From a virus (taxonomy: Duplodnaviria; Heunggongvirae; Uroviricota; Caudoviricetes): a stretch of DNA of 48,811 nucleotides. Below are positions 5,389-44,344 of this stretch, piece after piece. A program made the position numbers and the translations under genes. Every line of letters starts with the position of its first letter. Positions within the stretch are counted from its first letter, which is position 1. The stretch lies in IMG/VR virus record IMGVR_UViG_2706794677_000013, one strand, 5' to 3'. The notes below the pieces were generated by a model. The model ran no database searches. It had not been told where the DNA came from and was given only the letters and a program-made list of their open reading frames with translations.

Positions 5389-5489
5389 TGTTTTTTAACC
5401 TCAACTCAGATTAAAATTCGTTTTGTTCAGTGAATGATCTTGCCGGATACACACTGTTCATAGCCTGCGCCATACGCAGGCTATTTCTT

Positions 5490-8502: not shown

Positions 8503-8921
8503 AAATCAAGCATGAGCACATCGAGTCAGTGTTGTTAGCCCTGGCAGCCGAAAAAGGGCAGGCATGGGTAGCCAATGCCATTACTGAAGAATATCTGCGC
8601 CAGGGGGGCGGCGAATTGCCCCTGGTACCAGGCAAGGACTGGAATAATCAGCAGAATATCTATCACCGTTGGTTGAAAGGTGAAACGAAAACGCAAAGAG
8701 AAAAAATTCAGAAGCTGATCCCAGCAATTCTGGCAATCCTTCCGCGCGAGCTGCGTCACCGACTCTGCATCTTCGATACCCTGGAACGCCGTGCATTACT
8801 GGCGGCGCAGGAAGCGTTAAGTACGGCAATTGATGCGCATGATGATGCAGTCCAAGCCGTTTACCGGAAAGCGCATTTCAGCGGCGGCGGGTCTTCCGAC
8901 GATTCTGTCATTGTTCATTAA
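8499..8921 (+). CDS. ydaT: YdaT-like protein, 140 aa
   Basis: ORF overlapping the ydaS stop by 4 nt; sequence recollection. Confidence 0.65.
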   Translation: MKIKHEHIESVLLALAAEKGQAWVANAITEEYLRQGGGELPLVPGKDWNNQQNIYHRWLKGETKTQREKIQKLIPAILAILPRELRHRLCIFDTLERRALLAAQEALSTAIDAHDDAVQAVYRKAHFSGGGSSDDSVIVH

Positions 8922-8933
8922 GCAAAAGTTTCC

Positions 8934-9791
8934 ATGCTGTTTGTGCTTATTCTAAGCCACCGGGCAGCATCATACGGGGCAATTATGGCCGCATTACCAT
9001 ACATGCAACTGTACATAGCTGATTACCTGGCTGACACCATGCATTTGTCAGCAGAGGAGCATGGTGCGTATTTGTTGCTGATGTTCAATTACTGGCAAAC
9101 AGGAAAGCCAATACCTAAAAACAGGCTGGCAAAAATTGCCCGTCTGACTAACGAGCGATGGGCTGATGTTGAACCATCCTTGCAGGAGTTTTTTTGCGAT
9201 AACGGCGAGGAATGGGTGCATCTTCGGATTGAGGAAGATCTGGCATCAGTCAGGGAAAAATTAACCAAAAAATCAGCCGCAGGAAAAGCATCTGTTCAGG
9301 CCAGAAGAAGCAGAAAGGAAGCAGATGTTCAAACAAAACAAGAGAGAAATTTAACAGGTGTTCAAACAGATGTTGAAGTGGTGTTTGAACATGATGTCAA
9401 CACAAAGGCAACTAATAAAGATACAGATAAAGATCTAAAAACAGATCCCCCCCTAAATCCCCCCCGGGGGAATCGAGGTGTCAAAAAGTTTGACCCTCTG
9501 GATATTGCTTTGCCGAACTGGATTTCTGTCTCGCTTTGGCGTGAGTGGGTTGAATTTCGCCAGGCATTGCGAAAACCGATTCGAACGGAGCAGGGCGCTA
9601 ACGGGGCGATACGGGAGCTGGAAAAATTCCGCCAGCAGGGTTTTTCACCTGAGCAGGTGATTCGACACAGCATCGCCAATGAATACCAGGGCTTGTTCGC
9701 GCCGAAAGGTGTTCGACCTGAGACGTTACTCCGACAGGTTAACACCGTCTCGTTACCGGATAGTGCGATCCCGCCAGGCTTCAGGGGGTAA
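8934..9791 (+). CDS. ydaU: YdaU-like phage replication protein (DUF1376-type), 285 aa
   Basis: Sequence recollection; followed 6 nt later by a DnaC-like ATPase gene (replication module arrangement). Confidence 0.7.
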   Translation: MLFVLILSHRAASYGAIMAALPYMQLYIADYLADTMHLSAEEHGAYLLLMFNYWQTGKPIPKNRLAKIARLTNERWADVEPSLQEFFCDNGEEWVHLRIEEDLASVREKLTKKSAAGKASVQARRSRKEADVQTKQERNLTGVQTDVEVVFEHDVNTKATNKDTDKDLKTDPPLNPPRGNRGVKKFDPLDIALPNWISVSLWREWVEFRQALRKPIRTEQGANGAIRELEKFRQQGFSPEQVIRHSIANEYQGLFAPKGVRPETLLRQVNTVSLPDSAIPPGFRG

Positions 9792-9797
9792 CTGACC

Positions 9798-10224
9798 ATG
9801 AAAAATATTGCGACAGGCGACGTTCTTGAACGTATCCGCAGACTGGCCCCGTCACATGTAACCGCGCCATTCAAGACGGTAGCGGAGTGGCGCGAGTGGC
9901 AACTTTCCGAAGGCCAGAAACGTTGTGAGGAGATCAACCGTCAGAATCGTCAGTTGCGGGTGGAAAAAATTCTGAATCGCTCTGGCATCCAGCCATTGCA
10001 CCGCAAATGCTCGTTTTCGAATTACCAGGTGCAGAACGAAGCGCAGCGATACGCGTTGAGTCAGGCGAAATCCATCGCTGATGAACTGATGACCGGGTGT
10101 ACAAATTTTGCGTTCAGCGGAAAACCTGGTACCGGGAAGAACCACTTAGCGGCAGCTATCGGGAATCGCCTGCTGAAAGACGGTCAGACAGTGATTGTGG
10201 TTACCGTGGCTGATGTTATGAGCG
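9798..10224 (+). CDS. ydaV: YdaV-like DnaC/IstB-family helicase loader, 5' part only (runs into N gap)
   Basis: Walker A motif GKPGTGKNHLAAAIG; ORF truncated by N run at 10225. Confidence 0.75.
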
Positions 10225-10474
10225 NNNNNNNNNNNNNNNNNNNNNNNNNNNNNNNNNNNNNNNNNNNNNNNNNNNNNNNNNNNNNNNNNNNNNNNNNNNN
10301 NNNNNNNNNNNNNNNNNNNNNNNNNNNNNNNNNNNNNNNNNNNNNNNNNNNNNNNNNNNNNNNNNNNNNNNNNNNNNNNNNNNNNNNNNNNNNNNNNNNN
10401 NNNNNNNNNNNNNNNNNNNNNNNNNNNNNNNNNNNNNNNNNNNNNNNNNNNNNNNNNNNNNNNNNNNNNNNNNN
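10225..10474. other. Run of 250 N
   Basis: Literal n characters. Confidence 1.
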
Positions 10475-10694
10475 GCGTTAATTCAGGTTGGATGGCTGGT
10501 CGAAAATGACGGAGGGCTTTCTCTACCTAACTTTGAACGTCATAACGGAAAAAGCTCTAAAAAAAACGGGCGGTTACAAACGAGCGAGTAACAAAAATAC
10601 GCGAACTGAAACGAAAAGGTAACGCTGCCAGCGTTACACAAACGGATCAAAAAGCGTTACCAGAGGAAGAGGAAGAGGAAGATCTAAATACTGA

Positions 10695-11030
10695 TCTCCC
10701 CCTCGCCAAAAACGAGCGTCTAAAAAATTCGAGCCGGAGGCTATTGAGCTGCCCGATTGGTTGCCGGAAACACTCTGGCATGAGTGGGTCCGGTTCAGAC
10801 AGGCATTGCGAAAACCGATTCGAACGGAGCAGGGCGCTAACGGGGCGATACGGGAACTGGAAAAATTCCGTCAGCAGGGTTTTACACCTGAGCAGGTGAT
10901 TCGACACAGCATCGCCAATGAATACCAGGGCCTGTTCGCGCCGAAAGGTGTTCGGCCTGAGACGTTGCTCCGACAGGTTAACACCGTCTCGTTGCCGGAC
11001 AGTGCGATCCCGCCAGGCTTCAGGGGGTAA
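10695..11030 (+). pseudogene. Second, diverged copy of the YdaU-like C-terminal region (fragment; in-frame TGA immediately upstream at 10692..10694)
   Basis: Translation ...KKFEPEAIELPDWLPETLWHEWVRFRQALRKPIRTEQGANGAIRELEKFRQQGFTPEQVIRH... is near-identical to the C-terminus of the 8934..9791 protein. Confidence 0.5.
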
Positions 11031-11036
11031 CGGACC

Positions 11037-11325
11037 ATGAAAAATATTGCGACAGGCGGCGTTCTGGAACGCATCCGCCGACTGACCCCGCCACATGTAA
11101 CCGCCCCATTCAGAACGGTAGCGGAGTGGCGCGAGTGGCAACTTGCTGAAGGCCAGAAACGTAGCGAGGAGATCAACCGCCTGAATCGCCAGTTGCGGGT
11201 GGAAAAAATTCTGAATCGCTCAGGCATCCAGCCGTTGCACCGTAAATGCTCGTTTGCGAATTACCAGGTGCAGAACGACGGCCAGCGATACGCGTTAAGC
11301 CAGGCGAAATCCATCGCCGATGAAC
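11037..11325 (+). CDS. Second copy of YdaV-like DnaC-family gene, 5' part only (runs into N gap)
   Basis: MKNIATGGVLERIRRL... about 90 percent identical at protein level to the start of the 9798 gene; truncated by N run. Confidence 0.6.
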
Positions 11326-11575
11326 NNNNNNNNNNNNNNNNNNNNNNNNNNNNNNNNNNNNNNNNNNNNNNNNNNNNNNNNNNNNNNNNNNNNNNNNNNN
11401 NNNNNNNNNNNNNNNNNNNNNNNNNNNNNNNNNNNNNNNNNNNNNNNNNNNNNNNNNNNNNNNNNNNNNNNNNNNNNNNNNNNNNNNNNNNNNNNNNNNN
11501 NNNNNNNNNNNNNNNNNNNNNNNNNNNNNNNNNNNNNNNNNNNNNNNNNNNNNNNNNNNNNNNNNNNNNNNNNNN
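11326..11575. other. Run of 250 N
   Basis: Literal n characters. Confidence 1.
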
Positions 11576-11591
11576 AGTTTCAGGAGGATTT

Positions 11592-12014
11592 ATGGCGAAA
11601 CCTTTTACTCCCGAACAGCGGGAAGAACTGAAGACGCGAATTGTGGAACTCGTGCATCAGGACGGTCGGGTCACGATTCGGCAGTTGTCAGATGAAACAG
11701 GTATCAGTCGTGCGTCTGTCGGTCGCTTATGCATAGAACTGGTCGCAAGTGGTGATGTATATAATTCTGGCTACGGCTTATTCCCGTCTGAACAGGCTCG
11801 CAAGGACTGGCAAAGCGCCCGCAAAAAACTCTCGAGAGTAAAGGTGAGGAAACCGGTTGTTGTTGATCCGGACCTTATCTGGTCATTACCTGACGGAGAA
11901 ATACGCCGCTACGACAGGCGCCTGAATATAATCTGTCGCGAGTGCCGGAAGAGCGAAGCTATGCAGCGTGTACTGGCTTTCTATCAGGGTAATTTTCAGG
12001 AGGCGATACTGTGA
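11592..12014 (+). CDS. Hypothetical nin-region protein, 140 aa, C-terminal CRECRK motif (paralog A of 15721..16137)
   Basis: ATG at 11592 preceded by caggagg; the ORF track merges it with upstream sequence only because the N run happens to keep frame. Confidence 0.6.
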   Translation: MAKPFTPEQREELKTRIVELVHQDGRVTIRQLSDETGISRASVGRLCIELVASGDVYNSGYGLFPSEQARKDWQSARKKLSRVKVRKPVVVDPDLIWSLPDGEIRRYDRRLNIICRECRKSEAMQRVLAFYQGNFQEAIL

Positions 12015-12071
12015 ATGAAATTAGCTATCAGGCTTCAATTACCGCTGGCATTCGCATCAAAGGAGAGGAGC

Positions 12072-12428
12072 ATGGAAATAAAACCAGAAGATGAGTTAAG
12101 CAATATCGTTTTATTTCCGGTAAAAGAGGATGACCCTCGTAATCAGGTTAATTTTCTTTATGAGCCATCGGAAAGACCATATTGCCATCACGCCTCTGTA
12201 CGGGTTGACGAAAAAGAGCGTCAGGTCCGCTGTAAAATCTGCGGTGCGGTTGTGGAGCCGTTTGACTGGATGCTCTCTGTGGCAAAAAGAGAAACCAGAC
12301 TGGCAGATGATGTAAGGCTATTGCGCCAGGAGGAACAGGAAAGGCGGAGAAATATAGAAAAGCTGATACAGATTGAGCGTAACGCGAAAGCGCGGATACG
12401 CAGGGCGACAAAATCCAGAACTGAATAA
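12072..12428 (+). CDS. Hypothetical protein with CxxC-type Cys pairs and basic coiled-coil C-terminus (start at MEIKPEDE)
   Basis: ATG preceded by aaggagagg; Cys pairs CHH...CKIC. Confidence 0.5.
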   Translation: MEIKPEDELSNIVLFPVKEDDPRNQVNFLYEPSERPYCHHASVRVDEKERQVRCKICGAVVEPFDWMLSVAKRETRLADDVRLLRQEEQERRRNIEKLIQIERNAKARIRRATKSRTE

Positions 12429-12575
12429 TTAAATTTAGCACTGTTAAAAATTTAATCCTTAACCGGAGGGATTTCTGCACCCTCAAATCATCAGGAGACC
12501 ACCCGAAAGGGCGGGGAGCAGTCACACATCTGTTTCCGATAGCCCCGTTCTAATGCTACACTCTTTGATATTTTT

Positions 12576-13262
12576 ATGACCCCAATAAACATATTTATGA
12601 CAGTTGCTGATTTCAAACGGCCCAAATTGGAGCTCCCAAACGGGGCAAACAAACTACTACTGCACTCTTGCTGTGCTCCATGTTCCGGTGAGGTGATGGA
12701 GGCGCTTCAGGCCTCGGGAATCGACTACACCATCTTTTTCTACAACCCGAACATTCATCCTCAGAAAGAGTATTTAATTCGTAAGGATGAGAATATTCGC
12801 TTTGCTGAACAACACGGCGTGCCGTTTATTGATGCTGATTACGACACAGACAACTGGTTTGAACGAGCCAAAGGAATGGAATGGGAGCCCGAACGAGGGA
12901 TCCGTTGCACCATGTGTTTTGACATGCGTTTTGAGCGGACAGCGCTGTACGCCGCTGAAAATGGTTTCAGTGTGATCAGCAGTTCACTGGGCATTTCACG
13001 CTGGAAAAATATGCAGCAGGTTAACGACTGTGGGCGGCGAGCCGTCGCGCATTATCCGGGCATGGTGTACTGGGATTATAACTGGCGCAAGCAGGGCGGC
13101 TCGTCCCGTATGATTGAAATCAGCAAGCGCGAAAAATTCTATCAGCAGGAATATTGTGGCTGTGTGTATTCTCTGCGCGATACCAATCTACACCGCAAAT
13201 CTCAGGGACGCCCTCTTATCAAAATTGGTCAACTCCACTACGGTAAAGAAGAGAAGGAGTGA
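12576..13262 (+). CDS. queH: QueH-like protein (DUF208, epoxyqueuosine reductase family), 228 aa
   Basis: N-terminal [10 protein letters not shown] motif plus later CTMC and EYCGC motifs, which I recognise as the QueH/DUF208 signature. Confidence 0.6.
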
Positions 13263-13489
13263 TTTTATGGGGCACCTTTCTGATTGATTTCATATTGGCG
13301 AGGTAAGTAGAATGACTGCGGGTGCTTGAGGCTATCTGCTTCAGGCATGAACACCAAAAGGCAGATAGAGAAAAGCCCCAGTTAACATTACGCGTCCGGC
13401 AAGACGCTTAACATTAATCTGAGGCCAATTTCATGCTTTGCACATGTAGGTTAGCCTCTTACATGCCGAAAGGCAAGGAGAAGCAGGCT

Positions 13490-13645
13490 ATGAAGCAGCA
13501 AAAGGCGATGTTAATCGCCCTGATCGTCATCTGTTTAACCGTCATAGTGACGGCACTGGTAACGAGGAAAGACCTCTGTGAGGTACGAATCCGAACCGGC
13601 CAGACGGAGGTCGCTGTCTTCGTAGACTACGAATCCAGGAAGTAA
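13490..13645 (+). CDS. hok: Hok/Gef-family membrane toxin, 51 aa (HokD/RelF-like); the longer in-frame ORF from 13433 may be a mok-like leader
   Basis: MKQQKAMLIALIVICLTVIVTALVTRKDLCEVRIRTGQTEVAVF... is a textbook Hok-family sequence; structured leader with stem ctatctgc/gcagatag upstream. Confidence 0.85.
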   Translation: MKQQKAMLIALIVICLTVIVTALVTRKDLCEVRIRTGQTEVAVFVDYESRK

Positions 13646-13721
13646 GAGTGACCGGGCGGGGAGCTGATCCCATCCCCGCCCACCTCTGATGTGTCAGGCA
13701 TCCTCAACGCACCCGCACTTA

Positions 13722-13765
13722 ACCCGCCCATCGCTGTGATCTCTCAGCGTTTCGGCGGGTTTTTT
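13722..13765 (+). terminator. Hairpin plus T-run downstream of hok (intrinsic terminator / hok mRNA 3' fold)
   Basis: cccgcc...ggcggg stem followed by tttttt. Confidence 0.5.
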
Positions 13766-13894
13766 GTTGTTTATTTCCGGTGAATTTGATTCGCGCACCT
13801 TCGCAGATAGAATCGACTCACTTAAGTAGCGCGCAGGGAGAAGAGGGATGGACCCCGAACAGGGGAGAGCTATTTATCTGGAAGGATTCTGAAG

Positions 13895-14182
13895 ATGAAA
13901 ATCGAAGAATTGCGTGAAATTTTTAGTGAAAATGGCCTCTATGCTGTGCGCGTTGAGAATGGAGCGATTGTCAGCCATTGCCGCATTAGATGTTTGCAAT
14001 CTCAACAAAGGAAGAGCGGTGCTGTGTTATTTTATTTTTGTAATGGACTTCTGACGGACGGTTTTATTTTGCGTGAGGACGAATTTGTCACATCATTACG
14101 GGTTTTGAAAGAGATTGGTTTTAAGGCTGGTTTTCTGCTTTTGCTGAAGAATAAACTCATCTACAATCTTGAGCAGGATTGA
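13895..14182 (+). CDS. Hypothetical protein, 95 aa
   Basis: ORF with RBS-like ggaagga upstream; no recognisable family. Confidence 0.4.
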   Translation: MKIEELREIFSENGLYAVRVENGAIVSHCRIRCLQSQQRKSGAVLFYFCNGLLTDGFILREDEFVTSLRVLKEIGFKAGFLLLLKNKLIYNLEQD

Positions 14183-14220
14183 ACTCCTGCTGTGTAACAC
14201 CGTGCCACCGGAGAAAGCCG

Positions 14221-14469
14221 ATGGCACATATACAACTGGTCAAACAAACCTCTTCCGGATTACTTCTCCCGGCGACGCCGGAGAGTTGCGATTTTCTGCA
14301 TCAAATCAAAATAGGTGAGTGGATACACGCAGACTTTAAGCGTGTGTGTAACTACGCATTCCACAAGCGTTTTTTCAAACTCCTGCAACTGGGTTTCGAT
14401 TACTGGACTCCGGTCGGTGGGGCGATCACGCCTCGCGAACGAAAACTGGTGTCCGGTTTCGTTGATTAC
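14221..14469 (+). CDS. DUF1367-like nin-region protein, N-terminal part only (runs into N gap); near-identical to the start of 20088..20687
   Basis: MAHIQLVKQTSSGLLLPATPESCDFLHQIKIGEWIHADFKRV... duplicated at 20088. Confidence 0.55.
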
Positions 14470-14719
14470 NNNNNNNNNNNNNNNNNNNNNNNNNNNNNNN
14501 NNNNNNNNNNNNNNNNNNNNNNNNNNNNNNNNNNNNNNNNNNNNNNNNNNNNNNNNNNNNNNNNNNNNNNNNNNNNNNNNNNNNNNNNNNNNNNNNNNNN
14601 NNNNNNNNNNNNNNNNNNNNNNNNNNNNNNNNNNNNNNNNNNNNNNNNNNNNNNNNNNNNNNNNNNNNNNNNNNNNNNNNNNNNNNNNNNNNNNNNNNNN
14701 NNNNNNNNNNNNNNNNNNN
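14470..14719. other. Run of 250 N
   Basis: Literal n characters. Confidence 1.
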
Positions 14720-14921
14720 GGTGGTGCTGCACCAGATTGTTGATCGCCGGACAGCGTCGATGCGCAGCGTGGGGATGCTGACAAACCTGAACTATGAGGC
14801 CATGAAAACATTGCTCGGCGAGCGGATTATGGATCGCATGACCATGAACGGCGGGCGATGGGTGAATTTTAACTGGGAGAGCTGGCGTCCGAATGTCGTC
14901 CAGCCAGGAATTGAGAAGTAA
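14720..14921 (+). CDS. C-terminal fragment of an unidentified protein whose start lies in the N run (not the C-terminus of the DUF1367-like protein)
   Basis: Open frame from the gap edge to a stop at 14919..14921; differs from the C-terminus of the 20088 protein. Confidence 0.3.
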
Positions 14922-14943
14922 TTTTTACCGGGAGGAAATTTTT

Positions 14944-15705
14944 ATGGAGACTGTTTTTGACGCACTGAAAGCAATGGGAAAAGCCACATCCATAGAACTT
15001 GCTGCGCGACTTGATATCAGTCGTGAAGAAGTGCTGAACGAACTATGGGAACTGAAAAAAGCTGGTTTCGTTGATAAAAGCGCGTACACCTGGCGTGTGG
15101 CTGATAACAACGTTCAGCAGGAACAGCCAATGCAGGCAGAACTGCCGGAAGAAACCACCACGGCAACTGTAGTGAAAATCTCAGAGTGCGATTTAACCGC
15201 GACGATTGAACAACGCGGACCACAAACGGCGGATGAACTGGCTACGCTGTTCGGTACAACATCCCGCAAAGTTGCTTCAACGCTGGCAATGGCAATCAGC
15301 AAAGGACGCCTGATTCGCGTAAACCAGAACAGTAAATTTCGTTACTGCATGCCGGGCGATAATTTACCAGCAGAGCCGAAAGCTGCATCGGTAGCGGAAA
15401 CTGATGGTAAAGCCTTTCCTCAGCCAGCCGGTGTTGCGTTACCAGTACAGGAAGCGGCAACACAGGAAGATATTAAAACAGAAACTGTGGCGGACATTGT
15501 GCAGTCGCTGCCATCGTTTACTGAAACGCAAGCGGATGACCTAGTTTTACCATCGCTGCATATGGCAAACCGCGAACTGCGTCGGGCGAAAAATCATGTC
15601 CAGAAGTGGGAGCGAGTCTGCGCCGCGCTGCGGGAGCTGAACAAGCACCGGGATATTGTCCGACAGATTGTCGATTCCTCCAGTCGTATTGTGTCGGAAA
15701 AGTGA
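14944..15705 (+). CDS. Hypothetical protein with two winged-helix-like segments, 253 aa (start at METVFDAL)
   Basis: ATG at 14944 preceded by gggagg; two HTH-like stretches ([26 protein letters not shown] and [29 protein letters not shown]). Confidence 0.5.
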
Positions 15706-15720
15706 TTGCCGGAGGCGCTT

Positions 15721-16137
15721 ATGGCAAAAGTTTTTACACAGGAAGAGCGTGAAAAAATTAAGGAGCAGGTTGTTGAGTTGGTACGCCAGAGTGGGCGCGA
15801 GACGTTAAGGCAACTGGAGGCCAAGACAGGTGCGACAAGATATCTGATGAGCATTCTTGCCAGAGAGTTGGTTGCCAGTGGCGATGTATACAACTCTGGC
15901 TATGGGTTATTCCCGTCTGAACAGGCTCGTAAGGATTGGAAAAACGCCCGCAAAAAACTATCCAGGGCAAAGGTGAAAAAAACGGTTGTGGTTGATCCTG
16001 ACCTTATCTGGTCATTACCAGACGGAGAAATACGCCGCTATGACAGGCGTCAGAACATAATCTGTCGCGAGTGCCGGAAGAGTGAAGTTATGAAACGTGT
16101 ACTGGCATTTTATCAAGGAAATCTTCGGTATTTATAG
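15721..16137 (+). CDS. Hypothetical nin-region protein (paralog B of 11592..12014), 138 aa
   Basis: ATG at 15721 preceded by ggagg; C-terminal two thirds about 80 percent identical to paralog A, including the CRECRKSE motif. Confidence 0.6.
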   Translation: MAKVFTQEEREKIKEQVVELVRQSGRETLRQLEAKTGATRYLMSILARELVASGDVYNSGYGLFPSEQARKDWKNARKKLSRAKVKKTVVVDPDLIWSLPDGEIRRYDRRQNIICRECRKSEVMKRVLAFYQGNLRYL

Positions 16138-16275
16138 ACGTTACTAGATCAAAGAGCATTAGTTCATATGTAAATTGACATTTTTCTGGCACAGGGGAGA
16201 GCTAGCGTGGTTGTCCGCTTTGTGCCAATAGCGGACATTGCTGGCTCATGGTATGTTAGTTTAAGGAGGCAGGTT

Positions 16276-17298
16276 ATGCCCTGTATTTCGCTGTGGTATA
16301 ATAGTTGCGCAATTGATACAAGGGAGCGTTACATCGTGAAAATTGTTTTCGAGGTTAATGGAAAGAAAGTTCCACTAAAATCTTTAAAATACATAAGCAA
16401 AAAAGATCAACTCGAAGTAATGAAAAACTGGTTCTTTGAAAACTTTGAAGATCCGGCAAATGCTTGTCCGTATGAAAGTAGAGAAGGTGGCTATGCTTAC
16501 ATATATGGCGGGCCGTATGATGCGAGCGAAGAACTACAATCCATCTTCGGTCAATATGTTAAATCTGAGTATATTGAGGAATTAGTAGATGAATTACAAA
16601 CACAATGTTTTGACTGGTCTGGAAACTCAAATAATATAGATGATTGGTACGATGATGATATCTACGACGCTGTAACGTCTTCCGGTAATCCGTATTTAAA
16701 ATTCATTGATAATATCGATAAAATAAAAAAACTTGCAAAAGATAAAACTGAACAACAGCAAAAAAACCACTTGCTTAGTTTGCTCTACACGAATGTTATT
16801 ACAGCTTTGGAAACGCTTTATGTTGAGCTATTCATTAATTCTATAGAGAAAGATGATGTCTACATAGCCAATTGTATAGAAAAAGGTAAGACTGAATTTA
16901 AAGTAAGCAAAGATATTGCTGCGTTGCCTTTCAAGGGTGAACCCATCGAGAAAATTAGGGGAGAGCTAATCAGGTCAATCAAGGAACACTTGATCAGTGC
17001 AAGCTGGCATAGCACTAAAAAGGTAATCGACCGCTATGAAGCTACATTCGATATAAAAGTACAAAAAGACTGTCCGATAGAAGCTATTGAATTGGCAACC
17101 CTCAATCGAAATCACTTAGTGCATCGTGGTGGAAAGGATAAAGAAGGGAACCTCGTAGTGATTACAGACCAGGATCTTGAAACGCTGATTGAAAATGCAT
17201 CGAACCTGGCAATTATGCTCTACAACAGTTTAAATGTAGCAACGAATAAAACCACCATTTTGCAACCAGATGACAAACCGTTCATTCATGAATTTTAA
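16276..17298 (+). CDS. Unknown protein A of an AT-rich two-gene cassette, 340 aa; possible HEPN-like R-x4-H motif (RNHLVH) near the C-terminus
   Basis: Long ORF; ATG at 16276 preceded by a strong RBS (ttaaggagg); markedly AT-rich codon usage compared with flanking phage genes. Confidence 0.65.
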   Translation: MPCISLWYNSCAIDTRERYIVKIVFEVNGKKVPLKSLKYISKKDQLEVMKNWFFENFEDPANACPYESREGGYAYIYGGPYDASEELQSIFGQYVKSEYIEELVDELQTQCFDWSGNSNNIDDWYDDDIYDAVTSSGNPYLKFIDNIDKIKKLAKDKTEQQQKNHLLSLLYTNVITALETLYVELFINSIEKDDVYIANCIEKGKTEFKVSKDIAALPFKGEPIEKIRGELIRSIKEHLISASWHSTKKVIDRYEATFDIKVQKDCPIEAIELATLNRNHLVHRGGKDKEGNLVVITDQDLETLIENASNLAIMLYNSLNVATNKTTILQPDDKPFIHEF

Positions 17299-17313
17299 TA
17301 GCGCAGGTCATAC

Positions 17314-18315
17314 ATGGATATTCGCACACGAAAGACAAAATTTTTAGAGTCGTTAGATTCAACTGAAGTGATACGCAAAGCAGTAAGTCTCGCTATAGAT
17401 TGCATTATTGATAATCATAATAGTAATGAAGATACCCCCTTAGTTATTACCAGCTATGATGATCTCTGTAGAATCCAGGTGCTAAATTATGTACAGGAGT
17501 TTTGCGAAGCTGCATTCCCTGATATGGATGAATATTACTTTAGTCCTAACATACTTCGCATCAACGGCAAGACTAGTGAAGAAGCTTGTATTAACTTAAT
17601 TAAACTCTTAAGAAGTACAAAAGGCATGCTATTCTGGTCCGATGCCCCATCGTGGTTCGCTAGCCTCCCCGACGGATTATTCCATGTTGTTAACATTGAT
17701 CAAAAAATCGTTACTCGCGGCCTTAATAAGAAAAACTCTAAGCCGACAATAATCAATAAAGATTACAGTGTAGATACACTACTATCAGAGCTATTTTTGA
17801 ATGGCGCACACATGGAGCAACCCAACGTACACAACGTTTCTGAGGGAAACATGAAGTTCTATGATGAATGCCATGCTGGATTAATCAGACCAATACCCGC
17901 TCCAATAGGCGCGTCATACGATGAAGAGATCACAATTAATTCTCCAGATTGGCAAAAGCTCGCGTGTGTAGCTTTACGCCGCTATCAGTCGAAGGAATGT
18001 CATGACGGAATGCAATGGGATACAACCGATCATGGTTGGACTGATGTAATCGCGTATCCATTCGTCGAAGAAATACAATCAATGGATAATAGTGGTTATC
18101 GACAATGTTTAGTTGGGCTGGTCACAATAAACAATTCAAATGCAAATTCTCCGTACCTATCTACCGTTTGGATACATCCATTTTATCGCAGGAGAGGGTT
18201 ATTAAGTAAGTTATGGCCAAAATTACAAGAGTTATATGGAAGTAACTTCGAAATTGAGCGACCTAATGAAAATATGAAAGCATTTCTGAAAAGTGCGAAA
18301 CACGCAGATTACTAA
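17314..18315 (+). CDS. Unknown protein B of the AT-rich cassette, 333 aa; C-terminal GNAT-acetyltransferase-like motif (VWIHPFYRRRGLLSKLWPKLQELYG)
   Basis: ORF starts 15 nt after gene A stop (operon-like); AT-rich; motif resemblance by eye only. Confidence 0.65.
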   Translation: MDIRTRKTKFLESLDSTEVIRKAVSLAIDCIIDNHNSNEDTPLVITSYDDLCRIQVLNYVQEFCEAAFPDMDEYYFSPNILRINGKTSEEACINLIKLLRSTKGMLFWSDAPSWFASLPDGLFHVVNIDQKIVTRGLNKKNSKPTIINKDYSVDTLLSELFLNGAHMEQPNVHNVSEGNMKFYDECHAGLIRPIPAPIGASYDEEITINSPDWQKLACVALRRYQSKECHDGMQWDTTDHGWTDVIAYPFVEEIQSMDNSGYRQCLVGLVTINNSNANSPYLSTVWIHPFYRRRGLLSKLWPKLQELYGSNFEIERPNENMKAFLKSAKHADY

Positions 18316-18935
18316 TTTATGAATCAGTCTGTGGAGTTAGGGTTGGTGTGAACAAGTAGGGTAAGAGCCTCAACGTGATGCTATGCCGACCTGCTCCCTG
18401 AGAATTCACACAGAAGGCTGCTAGCAATGTCTGCAGATCGCTCAAAGCGGACTAAAATGTTGGCTTGTTTCTGACTTAGAGCATTTAAGGAAGTGCTGGT
18501 GGTGACTGGTTGTTGTGTTCCATTTCTACAGAATAAAATCACAGAAACTATACCCAATAGTTGTATTGAATCACTGACGAGACAGCCTCATATTTATCAG
18601 GACTGGTGTGCGTCTAATACAGGGGGTTGTCGTGCTGGTTCTCAAATGTGCGCTGGCTATTGCGGCTGTAATGGCAATTTATTGTCTTGCTGTTGTTCTT
18701 ATGGAGCGGCTTTCTGATTGATTACATACTGGCTAGAAAAAAGGTGTTACCTTGGTTTATCTTTGTCCGGCAAGGTGCGCTCATTAATCTTAAGTAAATT
18801 TATTGCTCAAGTATTCAGATTACTTCTTATGGTTGAAGTCTCCTGTCAATGTAGAACCAATATATTTACAAAAATGAGACCCGTCGGGGATAGCCCTGCC
18901 GGGTCTGACTGTTAAAGCATTTTTAATATGATCAT

Positions 18936-19274
18936 CTATTTTTTGGTGCTATAGACTTTTTCGCCCGAAAAGTCTGGAGCGACCCAAAAGTTAATATTAA
19001 ACTGAGCATCATCGCTTAGTTCAACACGGTGCCAGTATTGTGGTGGGCTTGTTGCAAAAGCGCCAGCATTAATGACTACTTTTATCTCCGGTTCAGTAGC
19101 ATTCTCATCAGTAAAACCATAATATGTTACAGTGCCTTCCATTACGCACAACTGCCCAAAAACACCTGCTGCTGTATTATGATGTGTTAATAACGCTGAA
19201 GGTACGTTCTCTTTTGTGAAGAACGGAGTTGAGCGTTTGATTACCCAATCTTTAGGAATTCTCTTGTGTGTCAT
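18936..19274 (-). CDS. Small cupin/DUF1971-like protein (start at MTHKRIPKDW), convergent with the AT-rich cassette
   Basis: Minus-strand ORF; weak recollection of a DUF1971-type family (HHNTAAGVFGQL, PPQYWHRVE). Confidence 0.4.
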   Translation of the reverse strand: MTHKRIPKDWVIKRSTPFFTKENVPSALLTHHNTAAGVFGQLCVMEGTVTYYGFTDENATEPEIKVVINAGAFATSPPQYWHRVELSDDAQFNINFWVAPDFSGEKVYSTKK

Positions 19275-20087
19275 AACCACCTCCTCCAAAACATGCATTA
19301 AAAATGCATCTTTTGGAGGGTTATGTCAAGCTGTTATGAAACACATAATTGATATGTTGATTAGAGGAGAAGATAGAATAAATATGGTTGTTTTTCGTAT
19401 AACTATTTGTTTTACTTTTAGTTTATGCATTCTGTGTGTTAGGAATAAGTTATTAAAGTTTAATCAAAAAATCTCGATGTAGTCCACATAGATTACTGTT
19501 ACTGAACCTTATTGTGTGTATTAGTTGTGTTCTGAAATTTCAGCTTAATTATTTATGATGTATTTTTTAACGATAAATATTTTCCCAGGATACCTTTACT
19601 GTGTATATAAATAAATTATATACGCATAAATAATGTAAAGGCGTCCTTTTAGATATATCTTATCAAATGTTAATGACTTGAGTGGGAAATATGATTCCAG
19701 CAACTTATCATGTGGCTACTTTATAAAAATAATGCCCATATAAAACAACAAGCGAAAAGGATTACGGATAAAAAAGGAGCGAGATGTGCGAACTTGTTAT
19801 TTTCCATGTTTAACCACCTTAAATAATTGATGATGACGGGATGATTGCATCTGTAATGCTTTTATTGAAATGTTATGATAAAAAAGAACTTTTGCATAAC
19901 ATTAAAATGTAATTTATCTAATCGTTTTTAATAATAAGTGTCGTATTTCTATCCTTGTACCAGCTATTTGATATGTAGTGTTTGTTCATGCTATGTGGGG
20001 CTTTACACCATAGCCAGTTTATTTATACTTTATTCGTCAGCCTGAACAACTGGCATCTGCTGCGCTGCGCCATCGAGAGATTGAGAA

Positions 20088-20687: not shown

Positions 20688-20977
20688 TGGTGAATTTACG
20701 TAAAGCGGCTAAAGGCCAGATGTGCCAGATCAGAATCCCTGGCTACTGCAATCACAATCCCGAAACCTCTGTGCTGGCGCATTACAGGCTGGCGGGGACG
20801 TGCGGAACAGCGACAAAACCACATGATATGCAGGCGGCGATAGCCTGTAGCTCATGCCACGATCTAATCGACGGGCGGGTAAAAACCAGCGATTACACCA
20901 AAGAAGAATTGCGCCTGATGCATGCTGAAGGGGTTTTTCGCACACAAGAAATCTGGAGAAAGAAAGGTCATTTATGA
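20687..20977 (+). CDS. DUF1364-like (YbcO-like) Cys-rich nin-region protein, 96 aa
   Basis: Cys pairs CQIRIPGYC and CSSCHDLIDGR; overlapping start/stop with neighbours. Confidence 0.5.
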   Translation: MVNLRKAAKGQMCQIRIPGYCNHNPETSVLAHYRLAGTCGTATKPHDMQAAIACSSCHDLIDGRVKTSDYTKEELRLMHAEGVFRTQEIWRKKGHL

Positions 20978-21516
20978 TTTACCCAACGAATACAGGAAAA
21001 AGCGGAGAACACCTTCGCCTCACCACGCTGGAAAGTGTCTGGATTCAGGGAAAACTACGTATGTGGGGGCGCTGGTCGTATATTGGCGGTGGCAGGTCAG
21101 GGAATATGTTCAATCAGTTGTTGGCATCCAAAAAACTGACGAAAACAGCCATTAATGAAGCCCTGCGCAGAATGAAAAAAGCGGGAATAGAGAAAGCTGA
21201 GCTGGAAGCGTTTTTGCGAGAGATGATCAACGGCAAGCAAAAGAGCTGGCTGGCGCATTGTACTGATGCAGAGGCGTTATGTATTGATCGAGTCATAAGT
21301 GAGGTGCTGGCAGAGCATCCAGGATTGATTTGCATTCTCCGGCAACGCTATGAAGGGCGGGGGATGACTAAGCGCAAAATGGCTGAATTGCTAAATGATG
21401 CACACCCAGAGTGGTGTTTTAGCACATGCGAAAAACGGATTGCTAATTGGTTAGCTGTTGCTGAGTATGCCCTATATATTCCCATGCGTGAATCATTTGC
21501 TGAGAAAATGGCTTGA
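20974..21516 (+). CDS. Late-gene regulator in the Q position (antiterminator Q-like), 180 aa
   Basis: Last gene before a strong intrinsic terminator and the lysis region; C-terminus has a sigma region-4-like/HTH character (RQRYEGRGMTKRKMAELLN); assignment is mainly positional. Confidence 0.55.
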   Translation: MIYPTNTGKSGEHLRLTTLESVWIQGKLRMWGRWSYIGGGRSGNMFNQLLASKKLTKTAINEALRRMKKAGIEKAELEAFLREMINGKQKSWLAHCTDAEALCIDRVISEVLAEHPGLICILRQRYEGRGMTKRKMAELLNDAHPEWCFSTCEKRIANWLAVAEYALYIPMRESFAEKMA

Positions 21517-21624: not shown

Positions 21625-22560
21625 CGTCAGGAAAGCAGGGGAGAATGCTGCTAGTTGGGCAACTGGTCTTTCTGCTCCAAATTATAACAGAGACCAGTTA
21701 TAGTTTCGGTGCTGTGTTTTTTTTACAATATTGTGATAACACATTGCTGGCGGGAGTTTTGATATTTCTTGGCAGGGGCTGATGATGCGTTATCCTGATG
21801 TCGTCAACTCATATAAAATGAGATGAGAGATCATTGCAGGGTGGTTTGTAATTCGCTGTTTAGCGGGACAATATGTTGTCTGATACAAGACACCCGACGC
21901 CTCAGATTACTATAATAAAGACGAAGCATCCTTTGTATTGACCAACCGCCTGTTTAGGCGGTTCTTTTTGGGCTGGTTTATTGTATGCCAAATGATTATT
22001 AAAAAGGTTGTGTTAATAACAAGATCCGAAATAATATGCCTGCATATTTTTATCTTGCTTATATTCTGCATATTGTGCATAGCAGGCTCATCCCTGCAAT
22101 CAAAACTGTATGATGAGTATTTTTTGTTTTCCTTTTTTCCAGTCATCTGATGATGACCTGCTTCTTTTTAATCCGGATCGACATCAGTTTTTTAAGATAA
22201 TTCCTGCGAGTTATATGCATAAATGCCACAAACTCCGCATTTTATGTGGTTGGGAGTTGCCGGGCGCGCAGTGAGTTTGCTAAGAAAACTCCTGCATGGT
22301 GAATCCCCCTGTGCGGTGGGGTGATACCATTAACCTTTTCTGTCGCCGACAGGTATCACGAACATTTTGTTCACCGGGAGGCACCCGGCACCATGCACTT
22401 CAATAGATTCTCTCCACATTATGGATATTCTTTCAGAATATCCCACGCAGACTTTGTGTAAATGTTAACAAATGTGCGTTTTATTTGATCTGATTCGCTG
22501 TTTGAGCGTCCAAAACAACGGTATATATAATCCTTTACTATATGACATATGTGAGGAAAA

Positions 22561-22989
22561 ATGGGTTTTCGTAGCGCATCAATTCTTACGTTGATTATTA
22601 GTGGGATTATTATCGGGTGCACTGATGCTGTATCGACAAATTATCATGACCGTACATCATATTACTCCGATAAAGCAATAGAGACACAGTATGTGAGTTC
22701 ATCTGAACGTACTTCTGATGTTAGTGAGGATATCCGTCTGTATGCCCATCAAATCAAGAGCGCCATCGAAAAACAGTTCGGGGATGCGAGTAAGTATTCA
22801 GGAAAAGAGTGTACACTGAGAATGCATATGGCCCCGAATGGCCTTCTACTGGAGGTTAAAAGAGAAAGTGGAGACCTCGATTTATGTCGTGAAGCGATGA
22901 ATGCGATAAAGAATGCTGATATACCTGCCCCCCCTTCGCCGGAAGTATATAAAGTATTTCAAAATGGGGTGCTGGATTTTAAACCCTGA
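22561..22989 (+). CDS. Lipoprotein with TolA domain-III-like C-terminus, 142 aa
   Basis: Signal peptide with lipobox IIGC; C-terminal 85 aa (YAHQIKSAIEKQFGDASKYSGKECTLRMHMAPNGLLLEVK...PEVYKVFQNGVLDFKP) closely resembles the E. coli TolA C-terminal domain as I recall it. Confidence 0.7.
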   Translation: MGFRSASILTLIISGIIIGCTDAVSTNYHDRTSYYSDKAIETQYVSSSERTSDVSEDIRLYAHQIKSAIEKQFGDASKYSGKECTLRMHMAPNGLLLEVKRESGDLDLCREAMNAIKNADIPAPPSPEVYKVFQNGVLDFKP

Positions 22990-23139
22990 TATTTATTGTT
23001 TTGTAATAAACGGTTTCGGCTTAGGTTTGTTCTGACACAGCTACGGCACTGAGCTAAATTTAGCGGATAGTCAGCTCTGAGCCAGTGGCGGACGTAACAA
23101 CTACTATTGCTGAGATTTTAATGGATTGAGGAGCAAGAA

Positions 23140-23535
23140 GTGGGATTAAAGAAAATCGTTATGTTGACTTTTTGGGTCGGTTTTGTTGCGGGATGCACAC
23201 CTTTACACCCTTCAGATTGCCACAAAACTACTGCTACAGGTAGTTGCAGTTCAGGACGCTGGGATGATCAGGATGAATGGGGGGCGCAAGCGCGGGGAAT
23301 CAGAGCTGCAATTAATGCCAAACTTGATGAGCCGCATAACTGGAAAGGGAAAAAATGCAGGTTGCATATGGAATTCTCTCAGGATGGCACGGCGTTAAAA
23401 ATATCTACCAGTAACGGTGATAAAGCCTATTGCGAAGCGATAAAGTCCGCAGCTCATAAAGCCAAATTTCCGGCCTTCAACAATCCGGAAGTCTACAGAG
23501 ATTTTCAGAAATCTGGCTTTGACATGCGAGGTTAG
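23140..23535 (+). CDS. Second lipoprotein, diverged TolA domain-III-like paralog, 131 aa
   Basis: Lipobox VAGC; shares the C..L.M....G.LL / C.EA...A....P.....PEVY..FQ pattern with the preceding gene. Confidence 0.6.
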   Translation: MGLKKIVMLTFWVGFVAGCTPLHPSDCHKTTATGSCSSGRWDDQDEWGAQARGIRAAINAKLDEPHNWKGKKCRLHMEFSQDGTALKISTSNGDKAYCEAIKSAAHKAKFPAFNNPEVYRDFQKSGFDMRG

Positions 23536-23786
23536 CTCTTCAATTACTATATCTCATTCATAGCAAACTGACAGATTTGATGATGTTCTATATACGAAAC
23601 CTGTGATGTCAAGTCTGAGCTAATACAAATAAACATAATATCAGAGAAATACATTTTATTAGCTCGCTACGGCGAGCTTTTTATATTGCATCGTCTCCAG
23701 CATATATATCAATTAAGGCTCTGATTGATGTGTCTGAAAGCCTACACATAATAACTATGCCATCCGTTCCGTGCGGAGGTGAGGCT

Positions 23787-24002
23787 ATGAAATCCATGGA
23801 CAAAATTTCAACAGGCATTGCCTACGGCACCTCCGCAGGCAGTGCTGGCTACTGGTTTTTACAGTTGCTCGATAGAGTAACTCCGTCACAGTGGGCTGCA
23901 ATCGGTGTGCTGGGTAGTCTGGTATTTGGCCTGCTGACGTACCTGACAAACCTTTATTTCAAGATTAAAGAAGATAAGCGCAAGGCTGCGAGAGGTGAAT
24001 AA
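23787..24002 (+). CDS. Phage-21-type holin (S21 pinholin-like), 71 aa; dual starts MKSMDK
   Basis: [23 protein letters not shown]...[13 protein letters not shown] recalled as S21-like; two transmembrane segments; immediately precedes the endolysin (TAATG overlap). Confidence 0.8.
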
Positions 24003-24490
24003 TGCCTCCATCATTACGAAAAGTCGTTGCTGCTGCTATTGGTGGCGGAGCAATTGCTATAGCATCAGTGTTAATCACTGGCCCAAGTGGTAACGATGGT
24101 CTGGAAGGTGTCAGCTACATACCATACAAAGATATTGTTGGTGTATGGACTGTATGTCACGGGCATACAGGAAAAGACATCATGCTCGGTAAAACGTATA
24201 CCGAAGCAGAATGCAAAGCCCTCCTGAATAAAGACCTTGCCACTGTCGCCAGACAAATTAACCCGTACATCAAAGTCGATATACCGGAAACAACGCGCGG
24301 CGCTCTTTACTCATTCGTTTACAACGTGGGTGCTGGCAATTTCAGAACATCGACGCTTCTTCGCAAAATAAACCAGGGCGATATCAAAGGCGCATGTGAT
24401 CAGCTACGTCGCTGGACATATGCTGGCGGTAAGCAATGGAAAGGNCGTCGTGAGATTGAGCGTGAAATCTGTTTGTGGGGTCAGCAATGA
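24002..24490 (+). CDS. SAR endolysin (phage-21 R-type lysozyme), 162 aa; contains one N at 24445
   Basis: N-terminal Gly/Ala-rich signal-anchor-release segment ([20 protein letters not shown]) followed by a lysozyme-like domain. Confidence 0.8.
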
Positions 24491-24932: not shown

Positions 24933-25199
24933 NNNNNNNNNNNNNNNNNNNNNNNNNNNNNNNNNNNNNNNNNNNNNNNNNNNNNNNNNNNNNNNNNNNN
25001 NNNNNNNNNNNNNNNNNNNNNNNNNNNNNNNNNNNNNNNNNNNNNNNNNNNNNNNNNNNNNNNNNNNNNNNNNNNNNNNNNNNNNNNNNNNNNNNNNNNN
25101 NNNNNNNNNNNNNNNNNNNNNNNNNNNNNNNNNNNNNNNNNNNNNNNNNNNNNNNNNNNNNNNNNNNNNNNNNNNNNNNNNNNNNNNNNNNNNNNNNNN
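24933..25199. other. Run of 267 N covering the Rz 3' end and the trkG 5' end
   Basis: Literal n characters. Confidence 1.
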
Positions 25200-43601: not shown

Positions 43602-44344
43602 ATGACACAGACAGAATCAGCGATTCTGGCGCACGCCCGGCGATGTGCGCCAGCGGAGTCGTGCGGCTTCGTGGTGAGAACACCGGAGGGGGAAAGATAT
43701 TTTCCCTGCGTGAATATTTCCGGTGAGCCGGAGGAGTATTTCCGGATGGCTCCGGAGGACTGGCTGCAGGCAGAGATGCAGGGTGAGATTGTGGCGCTGG
43801 TCCACAGCCACCCCGGTGGTCTGCCCTGGCTGAGTGAGGCCGACCGGCGGCTGCAGGTGCAGAGTGATTTGTCGTGGTGGCTGGTCTGCCGCGGGGCGAT
43901 TCACAAGTTCCGCTGTGTGCCGCATCTCACCGGGCGGCGCTTTGAGCACGGGGTGACGGNNNNNNNNNNNNNNNNNNNNNNNNNNNNNNNCTGGCGGGAA
44001 TTGAGATGCCAGATTTTCATCGTGAGGACGACTGGTGGCGTAATGGTCAGAATCTCTATCTGGATAATCTGGAGGCTACAGGGCTGTATCAGGTGCCGTT
44101 GTCAACGGCGCAGCCGGGCGATGTGCTGCTGTGCTGTTTTGGTTCATCGGTGCCGAATCATGCCGCCATTTACTGTGGTGACGGCGAGCTGCTGCACCAT
44201 ATTCCTGAACAACTGAGCAAACGAGAGAGGTATACCGACAAATGGCAGCGACGCACACACTCCCTCTGGCGTCACCGGGCATGGCACGCATCTGCCTTTA
44301 CGGGGATTTGCAGCGATTTGGCCGCCGCATCGACCTTCGTGTGA
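43602..44344 (+). CDS. Tail assembly protein, lambda K-like (JAB/MPN + NlpC/P60), interrupted by a 31-N run; exact end uncertain
   Basis: HSHPGG JAB-type motif in the first half; C-terminal half with a Cys/His catalytic-like region; frame changes across the N run. Confidence 0.7.
43960..43990. other. Run of 31 N inside the K-like gene
   Basis: Literal n characters. Confidence 1.

Follow-up and report, generated by a model that had tools for sequence, protein, structure and literature searches.

Group A colicins and related bacteriocins share with filamentous phages one point of entry, domain III of TolA, which is also the point at which the Tol motor pulls on TolB-Pal. Cor (phi80/N15), Llp (T5) and TraT (F) are small lipoproteins of the outer membrane with which mobile elements keep competitors from entering. 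Export of a free TolA domain III is said, in the work of Levengood-Freyermuth and colleagues, to give tolerance to group A colicins. Such periplasmic constructs have been engineered as signal peptide fusions (Levengood-Freyermuth et al. 1993; Wan and Baneyx 1998), and with the exported free domain Tol function is disturbed and E. coli leaks periplasmic proteins (PMC6195910). In the superinfection immunity of Ff-infected cells, periplasmic g3p-N1 (pIII) sequesters TolA, thereby blocking the uptake of colicin A and of phage (PMC10424213). Here we describe two adjacent open reading frames, ORF1 (22561-22989, + strand) and ORF2 (23140-23535, + strand), in a stretch of viral DNA of 48,811 nucleotides (IMG/VR record IMGVR_UViG_2706794677_000013; hereafter the window, meaning the whole stretch that was analysed), which is a Rac-type prophage of E. 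coli with intR, xisR, recET, kilR and sieB, followed further on by trkG and then ompN. Each ORF encodes a TolA domain III behind a lipoprotein signal peptide, and we tentatively read the two products, at somewhat less than even chances, as motor-uncoupled, outer-membrane-tethered decoys of TolA that would confer tolerance to colicins or filamentous phages. The domain itself is familiar, and RefSeq names the genes after TolA; for the motor-less architecture with a predicted lipid anchor on mobile elements, no account of a function was found.

The locus can be set against each of the described systems. Like Cor, Llp and TraT, to which they have no sequence relationship, the ORF products are small, encoded by a mobile element and predicted to be outer-membrane lipoproteins; however, those proteins inactivate an outer-membrane receptor, whereas the proposal for the ORFs is mimicry of a periplasmic co-receptor. 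The g3p-N1 case concerns the same interaction between TolA domain III and its ligands, but in the opposite sense: there the ligand sequesters the receptor, and here a copy of the receptor would sequester the ligand. The engineered TolAIII constructs likewise consist of an exported free domain without the motor-coupled part, yet they are artificial, soluble and overproduced, in contrast to ORF1 and ORF2, which are natural, carried on mobile elements, diverged from TolA and predicted to be lipid-anchored.

Membership of the TolA domain III family was established from sequence and from predicted fold. With TolA domain III (residues ~333-421; PDB 1TOL, 2X9A, 3QDP/3QDR, 1S62) the ORFs have in common the Pfam family, the fold and the disulfide cysteines. 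The Pfam family of the TolA C-terminal domain (PF06519, gathering score 25) is matched by ORF1 at 82.6 bits (E=2.4e-23) and by ORF2 at 54.6 bits (E=1.3e-14). In phmmer searches against the TolA III chains of the PDB, residues 55-142 of ORF1 align with TolA 334-421 without gaps in several entries (E ~5e-28), and blastp gives 60% identity to E. coli TolA 336-421 over 86 residues, also ungapped; for ORF2 the identity to E. coli TolA is 34% over 77 residues. AlphaFold2 models reach a predicted local distance difference test score (pLDDT) >90 for ORF1 54-142 and ORF2 46-131, the signal peptides and tethers being of low confidence. The top Foldseek match of both models is E. coli TolA III, with a root-mean-square deviation (rmsd) of 0.6-0.7 Å and a template modelling (TM) score of 0.96 for ORF1 (g3p-bound forms 2X9A, 1TOL), and an rmsd of 1.1 Å and TM of 0.88-0.91 for ORF2. 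Both models contain the elements of the TolA III fold, namely helix I, β1-β2, helix II, a short helix and β3, and the two disulfide cysteines (TolA C363/C388; C84/C109 in ORF1 and C73/C98 in ORF2) are invariant in all 46 of the 46 aligned sequences. The initial annotation had placed two ORFs at 22561-23535, both of which are intact on the + strand, and had recognised TolA domain III in the C-terminal ~85 residues of the first, proposing alignment and structure prediction as a check; run here, these bear out the assignment for ORF1 at the E-value, identity and rmsd given above, and the similarity to TolA III is significant for both ORFs. The C-terminal domain of TonB has a related fold and, as in TolA III, binds its partners by strand augmentation, but the matches of the ORFs to PF13103 and to structures of that domain are weak (TM 0.3-0.5, E >0.01); since this similarity is far weaker, TolA is clearly the closer relative.

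The part that precedes the domain sets the two proteins apart from TolA. ORF1 (142 aa) consists of a signal peptide (aa 1-20, 22561-22620), a disordered tether (aa 21-54, 22621-22722) and TolA domain III (aa 55-142, 22723-22986), and ORF2 (131 aa) of a signal peptide (aa 1-19, 23140-23196), a conserved Cys-containing linker (aa 20-45, 23197-23274) and the TolA domain III fold (aa 46-131, 23275-23532). ORF1 starts with ATG, with a Shine-Dalgarno sequence GAGGA 5 nt upstream, and ORF2 with GTG, with GAGGAG 6 nt upstream. The signal peptide of ORF1 has the basic residue R4 and the lipobox IIGC ending in Cys20 (MGFRSASILTLIISGIIIG-C20); that of ORF2 has K4 and K5 and the lipobox VAGC ending in Cys19 ((M)GLKKIVMLTFWVGFVAG-C19). 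Both agree with the PROSITE PS51257-type lipobox rule (K/R within the first 7 residues, an uncharged h-region, [LVI][ASTVI][GAS]C, and the Cys at 15-35), and the lipobox Cys is kept in at least 90% of the aligned homologues. The lipoprotein signal peptides had been read in this way at the outset, as had the GTG start of ORF2, which is to be preferred over the later ATG chosen by RefSeq because K4 and K5, which the signal peptide needs, are kept only with GTG. The residue at +2 after the lipobox Cys is Thr, and not Asp, in both proteins. In Lol sorting an Asp at +2 is the signal for retention in the inner membrane; with Thr at this position, ORF1 and ORF2 are predicted to be outer-membrane lipoproteins targeted by the Lol pathway. 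In place of the transmembrane anchor and the helical domain II of TolA, each protein has a lipobox signal peptide and 25-35 disordered residues. Unlike E. coli TolA, then, they have neither the N-terminal helix that couples to TolQR nor the long helical domain II, and they lie outside the context of a tol-pal operon; with a predicted outer-membrane anchor and a short tether, the domain would not be energised.

Models built for full-length TolA reflect this difference. NF007065 (cutoff 213) is missed by both ORF1 (107.8) and ORF2 (53.7), and ORF1 passes the cutoff of TIGR02794 (75.6 vs 59.45), yet the matched model positions are 265-362 only. ORF1 and ORF2 are not TolA: the NF007065 cutoff is missed, the last quarter of the model alone is matched, and anchor and domain II are absent. 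The RefSeq annotation made by PGAP (NZ_CP033250; L001 20330-20590) nevertheless treats ORF1 as a tolA pseudogene 'missing N-terminus', and it starts ORF2 at the later ATG, so that the signal peptide loses its basic n-region; both treatments look like artefacts of full-length TolA equivalog models. Read literally, the pseudogene label would make ORF1 a non-functional remnant, the decaying piece of a captured tolA, and the match to only the C-terminal quarter of the full-length models agrees with such an origin. This is highly improbable, however, given that ORF1 is equipped with a start codon, a ribosome-binding site and a lipobox signal peptide of its own, that the ratio of nonsynonymous to synonymous substitution rates (dN/dS) is 0.09-0.34 in its domain against 0.4-0.8 in its tether, that intact 142-aa variants (65-91% identity) are found in other prophages and the lineage in 898 of 5426 complete E. 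coli genomes (blastn), and that its nucleotides are too distant from tolA for blastn, so that it is not a recent fragment. The pseudogene reading was rejected on the evidence of selection, and the dN/dS values of the two ORFs (those of ORF2 are given below) show that both are working genes and that the RefSeq label on ORF1 is artefactual. A recent capture of ORF1 from the host tolA was also rejected, as blastn at word size 11 links ORF1 to tolA in no genome.

The surfaces through which TolA domain III meets its ligands are well described, and they were placed on the ORFs through the alignment with TolA. Strand β3 (A415-K420) and helix I bind g3p-N1, colicin N and the N-terminus of TolB, and β2 (375-380) together with K368, K379 and K396 binds colicin A (PMC4339652, PMC3365938, PMC7391070). 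In ORF1, 11 of 16 positions of helix I are identical to TolA (D336, I337, Y340, A341, Q343, I344, K345, S346, A347, I348, E349); β3 reads GVLDFKP against APLDFKP in TolA, with L417, D418, F419, K420 and P421 identical; and the colicin A box reads LLEVKR against LLDIKP, K379 and K396 being kept and K368 replaced by His. An edge strand β3 that is free of proline at the positions of TolA D418 and K420 is able to take up a partner strand (PMC4339652), and these positions are proline-free in both proteins (L-D-F-K in ORF1, F-D-M-R in ORF2). On this comparison ORF1 looks like a faithful mimic of the receptor domain of its host, and it would cover the g3p, colicin N and TolB site as well as much of the colicin A site. 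Its identity is highest to the TolA of E. coli (60.5%; 53.6% for Klebsiella and 53.5% for Salmonella), as expected of a mimic of the host receptor.

The decoy reading can be put as a sequence of steps. A lipid-anchored TolA III would be suspended, on its tether of 25-35 residues, from the inner side of the outer membrane, directly below the porins and pili that colicin translocation domains and g3p use on their way in, and it would meet TolA-binding epitopes ahead of the genuine, TolQR-energised TolA; these epitopes would include the translocation domains that group A colicins and related bacteriocins carry, as well as the g3p-N1 of Ff/If1-type filamentous phages. Import would stall, because a TolA copy that is uncoupled from TolQR cannot supply the energised step, and the lysogen or the plasmid host would be tolerant. 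The idea is physically reasonable since ORF1 keeps helix I, β3 and most of the colicin A box contacts, and by analogy both the leakage caused by exported TolAIII (PMC6195910) and the mirror-image decoy formed by g3p-N1 (PMC10424213) appear consistent with stalled import. The ORF2 lineage, moreover, is found alone on IncI1/B/O/K/Z plasmids, on pO157 and on chromosomes, with dN/dS of 0.06-0.14, which argues for a benefit to the living cell and not during lysis only. The promoter-like site before the pair, the terminator-like hairpin behind it and the lipobox signal peptides that are the rule in the family also speak for the decoy reading. The pili of IncI-type plasmids are the receptor of phage If1. 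The g3p of If1 binds TolA III (PDB 2X9A), and the presence of ORF2-type genes on IncI-complex plasmids, taken with the use of IncI pili by If1, fits protection of the plasmid host.

Several points weigh against the decoy reading. In ORF2 the β3 strand (FDMRG) stays free of proline, most of helix I is changed (I337W, Y340Q), and K368, K379 and K396 are replaced by E, S and H; because these three lysines and most helix I contacts are lost, the decoy logic is not simply transferable to ORF2, which on the same scaffold has a remodelled surface and, for the same reason, probably a different, conserved ligand. Fast-evolving attackers are a poorer match for the very strong conservation of ORF2 across genera than a conserved partner in the host would be. 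Damage to Tol-Pal, and with it a cost, could follow if a TolA III copy still bound the N-terminus of TolB. The ORF1 lineage is always linked to a lysis cassette in the loci examined, which a role in the lytic cycle would fit too, and the promoter-like site in front of the pair (22502-22531) is a consensus match alone. PADLOC returned no match for ORF1 or ORF2, and full-text literature searches found no functional study of the lipid-anchored TolA III family.

The two ORFs belong to different lineages. The initial annotation had taken ORF2 for a diverged paralog of ORF1; the diverged TolA III domain is indeed present, but ORF2 is not simply a local paralog: it comes from a lineage of its own, which is conserved in several genera. 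A tandem duplication was rejected as its origin, the identity between the two being 29% over their full lengths (blastp) and their lineages and distributions being separate. Relatives of ORF1 fall into 46 clusters, every source-named one of which is from Escherichia or Shigella; in the complete E. coli genomes 959 of the 962 places are chromosomal, and true plasmids are without ORF1, the 'plasmid' matches being chromosome fragments with the real tolA. The relatives of ORF2 form 368 clusters in Citrobacter, Enterobacter, Serratia, Klebsiella, Raoultella and others, with close relatives in 33 species representatives that were found in a scan. These ORF2-type genes are single, lie in unrelated chromosomal neighbourhoods of many Enterobacterales, and are carried by ~600 plasmids (PLSDB) at 87-88% nucleotide identity. 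In conjugative plasmids of the IncI1/B/O and IncK2/Z groups the gene comes right after a nikB-type relaxase gene, and on pO157, the plasmid of enterohaemorrhagic E. coli (EHEC), between the hok/psiAB leading region and toxB; the plasmid gene is annotated as 143 aa (4995-5426 of the plasmid loci L003, L004 and L005).

Selection on the ORF2 lineage is strong. Protein identity is 78-89% across Escherichia, Enterobacter, Serratia, Citrobacter and Klebsiella, and pairwise dN/dS across genera is 0.06-0.14 at dS of up to 1.1, linker included. Such values would also be expected if the proteins, and mainly ORF2, were ordinary enterobacterial outer-membrane lipoproteins that tune envelope physiology and are carried by the prophage as cargo, the strand-augmentation domain and the Cys-rich linker binding a conserved partner, e.g., TolB, CpoB or a porin. 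The ligand surfaces of ORF2, unlike those of TolA, agree with this, as does the ORF2-type gene of Enterobacter kobei, whose place on the chromosome is fixed (three places shown, with 15 others like them). We nevertheless consider this explanation quite unlikely: the ORF2-type gene is patchy across species and has no conserved neighbours, and its repeated presence on mobile elements is typical of genes of conflict or defence rather than of housekeeping genes. As to the ORF2 linker itself (23197-23274, aa 20-45; TPLHPSDCHKTTATGSCSSGRWDDQDEWG), its conservation across genera equals that of the folded domain, and it has two additional invariant cysteines and an acidic/aromatic motif, in a region where model confidence is low. 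To judge from its sequence it looks more like an epitope for binding than like a passive spacer; any likeness to the Trp-containing TolB boxes that colicins have is superficial only. In Serratia marcescens (L009 6957-8736) the chromosomal ORF2-type gene adjoins a GmrSD-family gene and a HEPN-domain gene, in a defence-island-like setting.

In the prophage, the pair is preceded by genes for DUF1367, YbcO and a DUF1133 protein and followed by those for a P21-type holin (23787-24002, + strand; PF04971, E=4.5e-35), a phage lysozyme acting as endolysin (24002-24490, + strand; PF00959, E=8.4e-41) and a spanin-type lysis gene. The N-terminus of the holin, M-K-S-M, is the dual-start motif typical of the holin/antiholin pairs of phage 21 type. 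The DUF1133 protein (20974-21516, + strand; PF06576, E=2.5e-107) is the candidate late regulator, and the label 'Q-like' is a fair one because it just reaches the gathering score of Phage_antitermQ (PF06530; a marginal 26.1 bits vs a cutoff of 26). Downstream of it, a consensus scan found a candidate late promoter AAGACA-18-TATAAT (21887-21916, + strand) and then a strong terminator-like hairpin (21944-21963, + strand), which may correspond to pR' and tR'. An STnc100-family prophage small RNA (sRNA) element (22264-22450, + strand; Rfam RF02076, 86.6 bits vs a gathering score of 47, full-length model) begins ~750 bp beyond the DUF1133 gene and upstream of ORF1. According to a 2026 preprint, STnc100 is a relative of PasD among the prophage sRNAs, and the neighbours of PasD itself include lambda-type Q genes. 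The pair had at first been placed directly after the Q-like gene and tR'; the Q-to-holin slot stands, and with it the description as a moron site, but the Q-like gene ends ~1 kb upstream (21516) and the STnc100 element intervenes. In Stx phages the stx genes sit between Q and the lysis genes; the pair, lying between the Q-like gene and the lysis genes, therefore occupies the slot used for stx. A sigma-70 promoter-like site, TTGAGC-18-TATAAT (22502-22531, + strand; 10/12 consensus matches), is found 30 nt upstream of ORF1 and is kept in mEp460 and P0007-type loci but not in P0028-type loci. Between ORF2 and the holin gene lies an intrinsic-terminator-like hairpin, AGCUCGC-UACG-GCGAGCU followed by a U-run (23661-23688, + strand; hairpin at 23661-23678), with a 7-bp GC-rich stem (dG -16.4 kcal/mol, z -3.7); as a terminator hairpin it is convincing. 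A promoter-like site upstream and a putative terminator downstream would amount to the classical moron layout.

The proximity to the lysis genes raises the possibility that the pair acts in the lytic cycle against Tol-Pal. In that case the two genes would be transcribed late and in a Q-dependent manner with holin, endolysin and spanin, and the TolA III copies would titrate the N-terminus of TolB; TolA-driven release of Pal would be blocked and the outer membrane weakened, with the effect either of helping lysis or vesicle release or of shutting Tol-dependent entry into the infected cell. The cassette lies directly 5' of the holin gene and 22370-24003 moves as one mosaic block, every ORF1-lineage locus examined is between Q and a P21-type holin, the β3/helix I site used by TolB (PMC4339652) is retained in ORF1, and export of TolAIII causes periplasmic proteins to leak from E. 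coli (PMC6195910). Against these stand the ORF2 lineage, which thrives as a lone gene, far from any lysis genes, on plasmids and on chromosomes and is under strong purifying selection, and the terminator-like hairpin that splits the pair from the holin, which together with the promoter-like site before the pair is the pattern of a moron expressed in the lysogen; lambdoid lysis, furthermore, proceeds without need for such a factor. We judge both this action on TolB and its supposed effect unlikely.

The behaviour of the cassette among phages is that of a moron. Phage mEp460_ev081 has only 22370-24003 in common with the window, at 99% identity; the block starts within STnc100, of which it has the distal part, and includes both ORFs, the terminator-like hairpin and the holin gene, and it stands behind other upstream genes, two of which are labelled as Q antiterminators in the record of that phage. 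A tblastn search of 50,697 phage records found the pair in mEp460_ev081 only. Eighty prophage contigs of IMG/VR carry the identical pair, and 35 of the 80 lose homology upstream at ~22350-22400, with 30 of the 80 ending homology just 3' of the holin gene, at ~23950-24050. One block is thus joined to different Q modules and is present or absent among relatives, as expected of a moron, that is, of extra genes between phage modules, and the P21-type holin moves with the ORF1-ORF2 pair as a single mosaic block. Variants of ORF1 at 91% and at 66-72% identity are found alone, without ORF2, in other prophages, where they have a Q gene of lambda or DUF1133 type on one side and a P21-type holin on the other, and the cargo beside them includes a SASA-domain esterase, an AraC-type regulator and PmrD. 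Searches of viral collections with the single proteins returned near-identical E. coli prophage copies only. The breakpoint at 22370 in mEp460_ev081 falls inside the STnc100 element, so that this sRNA element may serve as a joint at which Q modules recombine with cargo and lysis modules.

The combination of a lipoprotein signal peptide with TolA III is not restricted to this pair. An exhaustive HMMER search over 1.84 billion representative proteins returned 130 clusters at E <0.001, and a canonical lipobox is present in 49 of the 68 family matches of 105-170 aa, with Asp at +2 in none of the 49; 'lipoprotein plus TolA III' is therefore a recurrent architecture. ORF1 and ORF2 both match phrog_5772, a PHROG with no assigned function, end to end, none of the named ones (e.g., Cor, Llp) being hit; a structural search of BFVD gave no match at E <0.1. 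In a study of ciprofloxacin induction (PMC11125564), the CP-933O gene EDL933_2012 was linked to TolA, but the supplementary table gives it as a tail fiber protein, and it was not used as evidence of expression.

A wider proposal, which is open to more doubt than the decoy reading of the pair itself and perhaps unlikely on balance, is that tethered TolA III copies form a widespread, unrecognised class of immunity proteins on the mobile elements of Enterobacterales, directed against Tol-dependent bacteriocins and pilus-specific filamentous phages, in which the ORF1 type would track the TolA of its host and the ORF2 type would engage a second target (e.g., TolB) through its conserved Cys-rich epitope. 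A natural, motor-less TolA III with a predicted lipid anchor is present in ~1/6 of the complete E. coli genomes, and relatives are found on the ~600 plasmids mentioned, among them pO157, a virulence plasmid of EHEC, and resistance plasmids of the IncI complex; the RefSeq label of a broken tolA on ORF1 hides the family from analyses of gene content. If tolerance to colicins or phages is what these proteins confer, exclusion by mimicking a co-receptor in the periplasm would be a mechanism of a new type, with bearing on bacteriocin-based therapeutics, phage display hosts and plasmid ecology. If they modulate Tol-Pal instead, they would provide a natural tool for studies of outer-membrane stability and vesicle release.

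A few other features of the window may be mentioned. No tRNA genes were found in it. Masked runs of N at 1656-1911, 10225-10474, 11326-11575, 14470-14719, 24933-25199 and 43960-43990 break several genes, including the spanin-type lysis gene just past the endolysin. The middle of the prophage, 8522-19705, is unlike that of the otherwise near-identical Rac-type prophage of strain ECCHD184, and it contains QueH (12576-13262), DUF1627 (14893-15705), two DUF977 genes and, on the minus strand, DUF1971 (18936-19298). An adjacent pair of genes, at 16207-17298 (weak HEPN/RES N-terminal match) and 17314-18315 (weak GNAT match), could be a defence or toxin module. The prophage also has a type I toxin-antitoxin locus, hok/sok, recognised by an Rfam match to the sok antitoxin RNA at 13320-13495 (+ strand, 117 bits).

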